A stretch of 64,000 bases of DNA. Origin: Escherichia coli. GTDB taxonomy: Bacteria; Pseudomonadota; Gammaproteobacteria; Enterobacterales; Enterobacteriaceae. Of the stretch, positions 59,052-60,334 are shown in pieces. The stretch lies in assembly GCF_003334255.1 (NCBI RefSeq), contig NZ_QOWU01000005.1; one strand, 5' to 3'. The position numbers were made by a program, and so were the translations under genes. Position 1 is the first letter of the stretch. Each line of letters starts with the position of its first letter. The notes below the pieces were generated by a model. It made no database searches, was not told the DNA's origin, and was given only the letters and a program-made list of their open reading frames with translations.

Positions 59052-60056
59052 TCAAACTTTATAGAAGTTACGATACCATTCTACAAAGTTCTTTACCCCC
59101 TCTTTAACTGACGTTTCAGGTTTGAATCCTATTACGTCATACAGTGCTTTTGTATCAGCACTGGTTTCCAGTACATCACCGGGTTGGAGAGGCATCATAT
59201 TCTTGTTGGCTTCAATACCCAGAGCCTCTTCTAAGGCATTGATATAGTCCATTAACTCCACAGGCGAACTATTACCAATGTTATAGACACGATATGGTGC
59301 TGAACTTGTTGCTGGCGAGCCTGTTTCTACAGCCCACTGTGGATCTTTTTCTGGAATAACATCCTGTAAGCGAATAATAGCTTCGGCAATATCATCAATA
59401 TAAGTAAAGTCACGCTTCATTTTGCCGAAGTTGTAAACATCAATGCTTTTACCTTCCAGCATGGCTTTAGTGAATTTAAATAATGCCATATCCGGACGTC
59501 CCCATGGACCATAAACCGTAAAGAAACGCAGCCCTGTGGTCGGTAAGCCATACAAATGAGAATACGTATGGGCCATGAGTTCATTCGCCTTTTTAGTTGC
59601 TGCATACAGCGAAACAGGATGATCTACAGAGTCATCTGTAGAGAAAGGCATCTTGCGGTTCATGCCATAAACAGAACTGGAGGAAGCGTAAAGTAGATGC
59701 CGAACATTATTATGGCGACATCCTTCCAGTATGTTCAGGAATCCAATCAGGTTTGCATCTGCATATGCATTGGGATTTTCAAGGGAGTAACGTACACCGG
59801 CTTGCGCAGCGAGGTTTATTACGCGTTCGAACCGCTCGTCTGCAAACAGTGCCGCCATTTTCTCACGATCGGCCAGGTCAATTTTATAAAAACTGAAGTT
59901 GTCGTGCTTGAGTAAATCAAGTCGTGCTTGTTTGAGGTTGACATCGTAATAATCATTTAAGTTGTCAATGCCTACAACCTGATGACCAGCTGCAAGAAGC
60001 CGTTTACTTACATAGAAACCGATAAAGCCAGCAGCTCCCGTAACCAGAAATTTCAT
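59052..60056 (-). CDS. gla: UDP-glucuronate 4-epimerase (Gla/UDP-GalA-forming), SDR family, 334 aa
   Basis: MKFLVTGAAGFIGFYVSKRLL..., YAATKKANE catalytic motif; AT-rich; opposite strand to the flanking gnd-ugd-wzz genes. Confidence 0.8.
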   Translation of the reverse strand: MKFLVTGAAGFIGFYVSKRLLAAGHQVVGIDNLNDYYDVNLKQARLDLLKHDNFSFYKIDLADREKMAALFADERFERVINLAAQAGVRYSLENPNAYADANLIGFLNILEGCRHNNVRHLLYASSSSVYGMNRKMPFSTDDSVDHPVSLYAATKKANELMAHTYSHLYGLPTTGLRFFTVYGPWGRPDMALFKFTKAMLEGKSIDVYNFGKMKRDFTYIDDIAEAIIRLQDVIPEKDPQWAVETGSPATSSAPYRVYNIGNSSPVELMDYINALEEALGIEANKNMMPLQPGDVLETSADTKALYDVIGFKPETSVKEGVKNFVEWYRNFYKV

Positions 60057-60235
60057 TTATAATCCTCGCTCAGGCTAGAATATAGCCAATATTCATCTGG
60101 CATAACTGAAAGTTAAATCATACCGTTAGACAAGAAAAAAAGATAATCGGTATCAGTTCTAAACCTGGCTGTTTTTTCTGGTAACGTGCTCATTTTACAA
60201 TCAAAGCTGTTCTAAGCTGACTATTAGCCACCTTC

Positions 60236-60334
60236 AAACAACAAGCCGACGTCATTATTTCCAACCGTATGGCAGAAGAGCTTAAGGATGTGGCAGATAA
60301 GGTCTATACCCGCGATCTCTTTGGCAGAGACTAA
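60236..60334 (+). pseudogene. Duplicated 3'-end remnant of ugd (last about 32 codons)
   Basis: Translates in frame to [31 protein letters not shown](stop), a diverged copy of the ugd C-terminus [31 protein letters not shown] at 58891-58986. Confidence 0.7.

Follow-up and report, generated by a model that had tools for sequence, protein, structure and literature searches.

In the Escherichia coli contig NZ_QOWU01000005.1 a predicted UDP-glucuronate 4-epimerase gene, gla, lies between ugd and wzzB and is followed by a short ugd remnant. This remnant is the tail of a resident ugd of the K-12 type and not a copy of the intact ugd that precedes gla. The arrangement probably arose once, when a foreign ugd-gla block of about 2.65 kb replaced most of the resident ugd and then spread among E. 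coli strains.

The window analysed is a stretch of 64,000 nucleotides of this contig. On the left of the locus, gnd (56165..57571, plus strand) is of E. coli type, being 92-100% identical to its K-12 counterpart in each 100 bp. It is followed by a foreign gnd-ugd spacer, named W-type (57572..57819, plus strand), which includes the gnd terminator hairpin (57598-57624) and the ugd promoter region, and to which the K-12 spacer cannot be aligned except at the terminator. The intact ugd, coding for UDP-glucose 6-dehydrogenase, is an apparently imported W-type allele (57820..58986, plus strand; NCBIfam NF011631, 798 bits, above cut-off); its accepted start is at 57820, and the upstream ATG at 57793 is not the start. 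A perfect 17-bp inverted repeat (59003..59038), 100% complementary, with a 2-nt loop and a T-run on the plus side, is likely a bidirectional terminator for the convergent ugd and gla. The latter (59052..60056, minus strand) encodes an extended SDR protein of 334 aa, and its upstream region (60057..60226, minus strand; 34.7% GC), a putative promoter and leader imported with gla, is conserved among gla-positive E. coli; a simple promoter scan gave no sigma-70 match upstream of gla, which is uninformative either way. The recombination joint falls between 60226 and 60227, where gla-upstream DNA abuts the resident ugd at about codon 354. The remnant, or stub, is a pseudogene consisting of the last 35 codons and the stop of the K-12-type ugd (60227..60334, plus strand). 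Next come the resident E. coli ugd-wzzB spacer (60335..60480, plus strand), in which the terminator hairpin of the original ugd (60344-60366) and the promoter region of wzzB lie, and, as right flank, wzzB itself, of resident E. coli type (60481..61458, plus strand). The position of minus-strand gla between plus-strand ugd and wzzB, outside the galF-gnd block, is as described by a previous sequence-only reading of this DNA; its description of gla as AT-rich holds relative to the window (42.8% versus 48% GC) and not relative to the adjacent ugd (42.9%).

The Gla protein contains the GxxGxxG motif of the NAD-binding Rossmann fold (GAAGFIG, residues 7-13) and the catalytic Tyr-x-x-x-Lys (YAATK, residues 151-155), aligned with YGVTK of PDB 6zl6. 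Pfam PF01370 (Epimerase) is the precomputed assignment of the E. coli Gla cluster; in NCBIfam no family was found above cut-off, all equivalog matches being far below theirs. Among PDB entries Gla matches 5u4q, a K. pneumoniae protein, with E = 1.5e-190; this entry is mislabelled as a dehydratase. The match to 6zl6, the B. cereus UDP-GlcA 4-epimerase, has E = 3e-43 and ranks above GalE and WbgU/WbpP. Proteins of the K. pneumoniae complex share 86% identity with Gla, and JGI names its relatives 'UDP-glucuronate 4-epimerase'. In K. pneumoniae, Uge is encoded two genes away from ugd (KP3699 versus KP3701); a biochemical assay showed that it acts on UDP-GlcA, and its assigned role is the synthesis of UDP-GalA (PMC3134468). 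Gla is thus predicted, by homology, to be a UDP-glucuronate 4-epimerase of the same family as Uge, and 5u4q and the 86% matches may not be the assayed protein itself. The Klebsiella gene, uge or gla(KP), whose product is about 86% identical to Gla of the window, lies near ugd, with the cps locus on one side and the O locus on the other; it serves core LPS and is species-wide. Unlike it, E. coli gla occurs in only some 5% of genomes, where it would serve particular O-antigens.

In every locus examined gla adjoins ugd, and the two products would act in sequence: Ugd would provide UDP-GlcA, which Gla would epimerize at C-4 to UDP-GalA, the putative source of the GalA residues of O-units, such as that of O167. 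The O167 cluster also encodes an ATP-grasp amidoligase, which has no NCBIfam match at all and would attach L-alanine; amide-linked L-alanine is present in O167 (PMC7685785). GalA was also described in the O-unit of LL004, where the same 334-aa gene lies between ugd and wzz (PMC8657804), and an LL004-type cluster recurs in the gla-positive genome 2014C-4587.

An independent repeat search aligned 58885-58986 with 60233-60334 over 102 nt without gaps, with 77% identity (79/102). None of 100,000 shuffles gave more than 45/102, the next-best ungapped match to the ugd tail in the whole window is 49/102, and blastn of the stub against the adjacent ugd tail gives E = 1.6e-19. The sequence-only reading was therefore right in finding a ugd-related remnant above chance, and both ugd-tail peptides that it quoted are correct; it had the remnant start at 60236 with about 32 codons, and here only the homology stands, since the remnant starts at 60227 and comprises 108 bp, with 35 codons and the stop. 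It also interpreted the remnant as a duplicated 3' end of ugd, and this interpretation has to be abandoned: the stub is 77% identical to the adjacent ugd, with 81/108 over its full 108 bp, but matches the K-12 ugd tail at 102/108 and that of FDAARGOS_1249 at 104/108. Identity to ugd tails of other strains reaches 98.8%, and is 94-98% with the intact ugd of gla-less genomes; the match to K-type tails has E = 3.9e-46. The differences from K-type tails are mostly synonymous, and the same polymorphisms occur among intact K-type genes. Moreover, the match to gla-less genomes runs without a break from 60227 across the terminator and the spacer into wzzB, the spacer being colinear with that of gla-less E. 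coli at up to 97.8% identity; in about 4,150 genomes an exact match begins at 60227, within their intact ugd. The near identity to gla-less E. coli (102-104 of 108 positions), together with the run into their ugd-wzzB spacer, identifies the stub as the resident tail. It keeps the last 108 of 1,167 nt, has neither start codon nor promoter of its own, and is directly preceded at its 5' side by an in-frame TAA stop; in the PGAP annotation it is an incomplete pseudogene, both here and in all six other gla-positive loci compared. No description of the stub was found in the literature searched.

The intact ugd of the window is only 75% identical to K-12 ugd at the nucleotide level and 84% at the aminoacid level, while its product has 90.5-91.8% aminoacid identity with Ugd of Citrobacter, Enterobacter and Kluyvera. 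The change of affinity is abrupt: after the gnd stop codon the identity to K-12 falls at once to 31-47%, and the W-type spacer has the 35 bp next to ugd and a 'cgatataat' block in common with the Citrobacter and Kluyvera spacers. Judged from these similarities, the intact ugd and the spacer between it and gnd share the foreign type of gla, which apparently was not brought in alone, as the sequence-only reading had proposed. K-type Ugd proteins have their nearest relatives outside E. coli, at 89-90%, in E. fergusonii, Salmonella enterica and C. amalonaticus/farmeri/rodentium. In gla-less strains ugd is a patchwork of both types, and a mosaic ugd that keeps the imported 5' end is found in a further 12% or so of E. 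coli.

The same genes, in the same order and orientation, with ugd and gla convergent and gla divergent from wzzB, are present in Citrobacter (freundii complex), Enterobacter and Kluyvera, where this is apparently the standard locus; in E. coli it is strain-variable. These native loci (L004-L009, L101 and L103) have the arrangement gnd-ugd-gla-wzzB-hisIE, and no ugd-like sequence, and hence no stub, was found in them between gla and wzzB. Compared with the window, their Ugd is 89-92% and their Gla 83-89% identical at the aminoacid level, and their wzzB just 64-75%; the block upstream of gla (aatcataccg...aaaaaagataatcggtatc) is also conserved upstream of the Citrobacter and Kluyvera genes. The nearest relatives have just 72-79% nucleotide identity. 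In a scan of 100,044 species genomes the best Gla match is at 87%, and among 5.8 billion proteins identity drops from 99% to 89% between the E. coli cluster and the rest, the nearest relatives being Citrobacter-like (87-89%); the two matches at 89% come from Citrobacter-like contigs, in which the synteny is native and the stub absent. No donor of the module was found in either collection. The GC content of gla is 43% in E. coli versus 48-54% in the three genera (for gla and ugd together, 43% versus 43-54% in the native loci sampled). The identity gap, the lack of a donor and the lower GC suggest either a source lineage not represented in these collections or a very old event.

The joint at 60226/60227 is spanned by 275 of 5,426 complete E. 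coli genomes (about 5%), and gla of the window type occurs in 279. The arrangement is not universal, K-12 being without it, and is serogroup-linked, in agreement with the sequence-only reading: the gla-positive O-antigen clusters are O167, O139, O116, O113, O115, O155, O153/O178 and the LL004 type, plus unnamed ones. The O-antigens O113, O115, O116, O139, O155 and O153/O178 presumably contain GalA, going by published structures. In six further gla-positive genomes, with O139 and unnamed O-clusters, a 2,909-bp block is colinear at 95.5-99.9% identity, so that divergence within it is up to 4.5%, and the position of the joint is identical in all six. In E. coli C the block is split by an IS, with ISSen4 inside gla. 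The occurrence of one joint in about 275 genomes, which belong to at least eight named O-types and to unnamed clusters, points to a single old event with later spread. As for a loss of gla mediated by the repeat, the predicted product of precise excision, in which the 102-bp repeat would join a W-type ugd to the stub, is absent from the 5,426 genomes; the best match, at 92%, is a patchwork K-type gene of Z1322HEC0006.

These data are probably explained by the following scheme. A module corresponding to 57572-60226 (gnd-ugd spacer, complete ugd, convergent gla and gla upstream region), with a layout native to the Citrobacter freundii-complex, Enterobacter and Kluyvera part of the Enterobacteriaceae, would have entered an ancestral E. 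coli, displacing about 1,059 bp at the start of a resident K-12-type ugd together with the spacer before it. Its right end would have been joined non-homologously inside the resident gene at 60226/60227, leaving the last 108 bp of ugd stranded, with no promoter and no start, and with their own terminator and wzzB still attached. After this one event the module would have spread by ordinary homologous recombination, with or beside O-antigen clusters. The remnant is thus a genuine recombination footprint, as the sequence-only reading recognized, and what needs revision is its proposal that the import used ugd homology: at the right joint, where gla-upstream DNA meets the resident ugd, no homology is present, and the left boundary now coincides with the gnd stop codon and is not within ugd. 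The non-homologous right joint, with conserved gnd of E. coli type to the left of the foreign DNA, resembles homology-facilitated illegitimate recombination, and we infer a one-sided event of this kind with a homologous anchor on the left, as well as the direction of import. The original left crossover is here unrecoverable after later recombination. The gnd gene is of E. coli type up to its stop, with 86% nucleotide and 93-95% aminoacid identity to the candidate donor clade; the boundary may have shifted, and its position at the gnd stop may reflect a later exchange rather than the original crossover.

Other histories of the locus were considered. That W-type ugd and gla are ancestral in Escherichia and the K-12-type ugd is the incomer, a surviving W-type block having then recombined into a K-type chromosome, seems to us improbable, although several observations speak for it. 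The module is about as far from Citrobacter (89-92% for ugd, 87-89% for gla at the aminoacid level) as are hisIE (87-93%) and gnd (93-95%), so that, its divergence being similar to that of the flanking core genes, an origin within the Escherichia lineage is possible; no closer donor appeared among about 5.8 billion proteins, and K-12 Ugd is just 83-84% identical to Ugd of the gla-bearing genera. Against it, the affinities of K-type Ugd with E. fergusonii, Salmonella and the C. amalonaticus group (89-90%) are those expected from vertical descent, and the scar is present in essentially all gla-positive E. coli (275/279), which leaves no surviving E. coli locus of an unscarred, 'ancestral' form. 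This history also needs one event more than the import of the module, and its scar-forming step would still be the entry of W-type DNA into a K-type chromosome. Much less credit can be given to the insertion of gla alone by recombination within ugd, with duplication of the 3' end of that same gene and divergence of the copies. A direct repeat of the ugd tail does flank gla; nevertheless, the stub has 94-98% identity with the tail of ugd in other E. coli and just 75-77% with the adjacent one, its mostly synonymous differences are not the pattern of decay from a neighbouring copy, and the adjacent ugd with its upstream spacer belongs throughout to a different allele family.

An equally slight chance is given to delivery of gla by a mobile element, an IS composite or an integrative island, with the ugd fragment as cargo or target duplication. 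Insertion sequences are indeed seen at this locus in other strains (IS600/IS30 beside O100-type gla, ISSen4 inside gla of E. coli C, IS1 between ugd and wzzB in JX21CE35), but they are strain-specific and at differing positions, and the stub is colinear with the resident flanking DNA. No transposase or integrase ORFs are found in the 57.5-60.5 kb interval, and neither terminal inverted repeats nor a short target duplication bound the module, the only long repeat being the ugd tail. Independent acquisitions of gla in each GalA serogroup, converging on one site, are hardly conceivable: all seven sampled genomes with gla at 95-100% identity share the joint and the colinear 2.9-kb block, and the joint recurs in 275 genomes. 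O100-type genomes, such as LD26-1, do have a second ugd-gla replacement of clearly independent origin, in which gla occupies the same slot in the same orientation between ugd and wzzB. There, however, the region from gnd to hisIE is wholly foreign and Enterobacter-like (gnd 86% at the nucleotide level and Ugd 96.6% at the aminoacid level to E. cloacae), gla is 75% identical to that of the window at the nucleotide level, with IS600/IS30 adjacent, and no ugd stub is present; this region was replaced cleanly by homologous recombination on both sides.

Gene remnants in nine O-antigen clusters and unusual locations of sugar genes in 17 were reported by Liu et al. 2019 and read as the result of past recombination (PMC7685785). 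The stub belongs to the same class of footprints as these 'anomalies'; unlike those remnants, it is outside galF-gnd, common to many serogroups and old. It would record one import between genera as a clean and dated marker, and it reveals which ugd allele was resident; the process is textbook-style recombination at an O-antigen hotspot rather than a new mechanism. As such, the finding is modestly new and will not surprise specialists. Regarding the gene itself, gla is not mentioned in Iguchi 2015 and DebRoy 2016, the site of the UDP-GalA gene was given vaguely as 'conserved loci elsewhere' (PMC7685785), and the 334-aa gene of LL004 was named gne with the statement that gla 'always maps elsewhere' (PMC8657804); both this naming and this placement are wrong. 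The position of the predicted UDP-GalA gene is now fixed for a set of E. coli O-antigens, and in glyco-engineering and in-silico serotyping one would have to extend the functional O-antigen unit, for these serogroups, past gnd to gla.

Two further readings are put forward tentatively and are rather doubtful. A PmrA box, CTTAAT-N5-CTTAAT, is perfect in the K-12 spacer, and the imported spacer matches it at best with 4 mismatches; lacking a good box, ugd may be uncoupled from PmrAB in carriers of the module (about 5% of E. coli) and of the mosaic gene (about 12%), which, if true, would affect L-Ara4N modification of lipid A and polymyxin tolerance. The stub, in turn, may have been kept as a right-hand homology arm, allowing the module to hop between E. 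coli backgrounds.

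The window covers the wca-his region of the E. coli chromosome and is 99.9% identical there to strain 214-4 (CP025840), whose wzx and wzy are named 'O167 family' by PGAP. From galF (44512-45405) to about 56.1 kb extends an AT-rich O-antigen cluster with wzx, glf, glycosyltransferases, an ATP-grasp amidoligase and wzy; it is followed by gnd (56165-57571), ugd (57820-58986, plus strand), gla (59052-60056, minus strand), wzzB (60481-61458, plus strand) and hisIE (61554-62165, minus strand). The galF-wzx interval holds a degraded ISAs1-family (H-repeat) transposase fragment at about 45854-46296, according to the annotation of the identical strain 214-4; the O-cluster of STEC384 has a similar remnant.

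The minus-strand 334-aa ORF that a sequence-only reading had placed between ugd and wzzB is borne out, as is the ugd-tail-like stretch past the 5' end of gla, which aligns without gaps to the last ugd codons at 79 of 102 bases. In 100,000 shuffles no more than 45 bases matched, the next-best ungapped position across the whole window reached 49, and an independent repeat search recovered the same pair of ugd-tail repeats. The start of this stub needs correction: ugd homology sets in at 60227, nine bases ahead of the position first proposed, follows an in-frame stop in the translation, and ends at 60334.

The stub had been described as a diverged duplicate of the adjacent ugd; its identity was decided when the region was set against 5,426 complete E. 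coli genomes. Most of these match the query only on its right side, starting at 60227 within their own intact annotated ugd, and the match extends across the terminator hairpin and the spacer into wzzB, with identities up to 97.8-98.8%. The stub shares 102/108 bases with the ugd tail of K-12 and 104/108 with that of FDAARGOS_1249, the differences being mostly synonymous, but only 81/108 with the intact ugd 1.2 kb to its left. Duplication and divergence of the neighbouring gene is contradicted by these allele affinities; since the stub is closer to the ugd of gla-less genomes than to its neighbour, it is the remainder of a different, resident K-12-type (K-type) allele. Its polymorphisms (e.g. 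gataaggta versus gacaaagtc) are identical to those segregating among intact K-type ugd genes, which suggests that it still recombines with them. No case of precise gla excision via the 102-bp repeats was found in the 5,426 genomes.

The intact ugd is of another type, 75% identical to K-12 ugd at the nucleotide and 84% at the aminoacid level, and its product has 90.5-91.8% identity with Ugd of Citrobacter, Enterobacter and Kluyvera. The nearest non-E. coli relatives of K-12-type Ugd (89-90%) are found in E. fergusonii, Salmonella enterica and the C. amalonaticus/farmeri/rodentium group, all phylogenetic neighbours of E. coli, which suggests vertical inheritance of the K-type allele. The gnd-ugd spacer of the window (57572-57819) and that of K-12 (1694-1941 of comparison locus L002) are both exactly 248 bp long and cannot be aligned except for the gnd terminator; with Citrobacter and Kluyvera spacers, the window spacer has in common the 35 bp next to ugd and a 'cgatataat' block. 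The gnd gene is E. coli-type up to its stop codon (92-100% per 100 bp), and its end is now the left limit of imported-type DNA.

A search with the Gla protein across bacteria, each species represented by a single genome, placed its closest relatives (83-87%) in Citrobacter sp. FP75, C. werkmanii, Enterobacter cloacae, E. asburiae, an Enterobacter MAG and Kluyvera. These six share the gnd-ugd-gla-hisIE order and orientation of the window, and five of them have wzzB between gla and hisIE; at the Kluyvera locus wzzB was not detected in this interval. None of the six has ugd-like sequence between gla and the next of these genes, wzzB or, for Kluyvera, hisIE. The two nearest proteins in a collection of 5.8 billion (89%) are encoded on Citrobacter-like contigs with this native synteny and no stub, and the roughly 170 bp proximal to gla (60057-60226) include a block conserved with gla upstream regions of Citrobacter and Kluyvera.

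The most economical history for these sequences is that a K-type E. coli chromosome received a block composed of spacer, ugd, gla and the gla upstream region. The block would have taken the place of the resident spacer and of codons 1 to about 353 of the resident ugd, with a homologous anchor in conserved gnd on the left, a boundary possibly shifted by later recombination, and a junction without homology at 60226|60227 on the right. The proposal of a recombination footprint holds, but not that gla came alone, ugd and its spacer being of the same foreign type, nor that ugd homology was used, the right joint having none. A mobile-element vehicle has no support, the repeat search of the window having given nothing in its favour. 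Less probably, the imported-type ugd-gla may be an old Escherichia allele instead of an inter-genus import, as the module is about as far from Citrobacter as are the core genes flanking it, and neither the one-genome-per-species scan nor the 5.8 billion proteins yielded a close donor; even so, the scar-forming step would be unchanged. A one-off, one-sided replacement that brought in ugd along with gla and spared only the tail of the former ugd is a coherent account.

Window-type gla at ≥95% identity is present in 279 of the 5,426 genomes, and the joint in 275. Six further gla+ genomes (O139 and strains with clusters unnamed by PGAP; the E. coli C block is IS-split) were compared over the 2,909 bp from gnd stop to wzzB start; the stretch is colinear, with 95.5-99.9% identity, and the joint is at the same position in 6/6 sampled. 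An additional 17-bp deletion occurs at this point in two strains, and in two the last ~30 bp of gla-upstream DNA are more diverged. Several independent insertions are contradicted by this common joint, which points to one event and later spread of the module. The PGAP wzx/wzy names of gla+ genomes include O167, O139, O116, O113, O115, O155 and O153/O178, besides unnamed clusters.

A second, independent acquisition is seen in 14 genomes whose gla is only 75% identical to that of the window at the nucleotide level. In LD26-1 (O100 family; locus L093, 6134-14298) the whole gnd-ugd-gla-wzzB-hisIE stretch is Enterobacter-like, with gla in the same slot, gnd 86% identical in nucleotides to that of E. 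coli, Ugd 96.6% identical in amino acids to that of E. cloacae, and IS600 and IS30 between gla and wzzB. No ugd stub is present at its gnd-hisIE locus, which looks like a two-sided homologous replacement; in contrast with this foreign stretch, the stub of the window appears as the mark of one particular one-sided event.

The imported ugd 5' end is present in 915 of the 5,426 genomes. In the gla-less strains PT109 (L090) and JX21CE35 (L092), the imported spacer and an imported ~350-nt start of ugd run into K-type sequence, and gla-less Z1322HEC0006 (L100) has an internal imported patch of ~120 nt within K-type ugd, a patchwork indicating that the two allele families recombine freely. The K-12 spacer contains a perfect PmrA box, CTTAATATTAACTTAAT, while the best match to the consensus CTTAAT-N5-CTTAAT in the imported spacer has 4 mismatches; strains that carry the imported 5' end may thus regulate ugd differently.

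Two hallmarks of extended SDRs are present in Gla, GAAGFIG (7-13) and YAATK (151-155). The protein matches PDB 5u4q, a K. pneumoniae entry, with E = 1.5e-190, and 6zl6, the Bacillus cereus UDP-glucuronic acid 4-epimerase (database label 'Epimerase domain-containing protein'), with E = 3e-43, above GalE- and WbpP-type epimerases. The former is deposited as 'dTDP-glucose 4,6-dehydratase' and is probably a mislabelled UDP-glucuronate 4-epimerase. Gla passes none of the NCBIfam models, hence its PGAP name 'NAD-dependent epimerase'. Identity with K. pneumoniae-complex proteins, which may include Uge of that species, is 86%, and Gla is predicted to be a UDP-glucuronate 4-epimerase. Uge (KP3699) of K. 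pneumoniae strain NTUH-K2044, two genes away from KP3701 (Ugd), was purified, assayed on UDP-GlcA and assigned to UDP-GalA synthesis (PMC3134468). Because Ugd adjoins Gla, the predicted pathway UDP-Glc -> UDP-GlcA -> UDP-GalA is complete at the locus. Linnerborg et al. reportedly placed, in 1997, the L-alanine amide of O167 on GalA. Amide-linked L-alanine is a component of the O167 antigen (PMC7685785), and the 285-aa 'ATP-grasp fold amidoligase family protein' of PGAP (49992-50849, plus strand), which has no NCBIfam match, is a candidate for the enzyme amidating GalA with L-alanine in O167. E. coli C has a similar gene in its O-cluster.

In the literature searched, the ugd stub is not described. 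That remnants of genes mark past recombination in O-antigen clusters is well known, nine clusters with them having been counted (PMC7685785); the event is of a familiar kind, the finding itself is real, and it is a useful annotation point that corrects some published statements. In LL004, whose O-unit contains GalA, this same gene (complement 13158..14162, 334 aa) lies between ugd and wzz; it is named gne (Table 3, orf11), whereas gla, according to the authors, 'always maps elsewhere' (PMC8657804). The gne label looks like a mis-assignment. Three glycosyltransferase proteins are common to the published LL004 cluster and the unnamed gla+ cluster of 2014C-4587, and in a phage study of 2022 a gene within the O-antigen region of one UPEC strain is labelled gla. 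In E. coli C (locus L089, 12869-16501) ISSen4 truncates gla and IS3 interrupts wzzB, a decay that fits the rough LPS of the strain; the stub is kept, with the 17-bp deletion at the joint.
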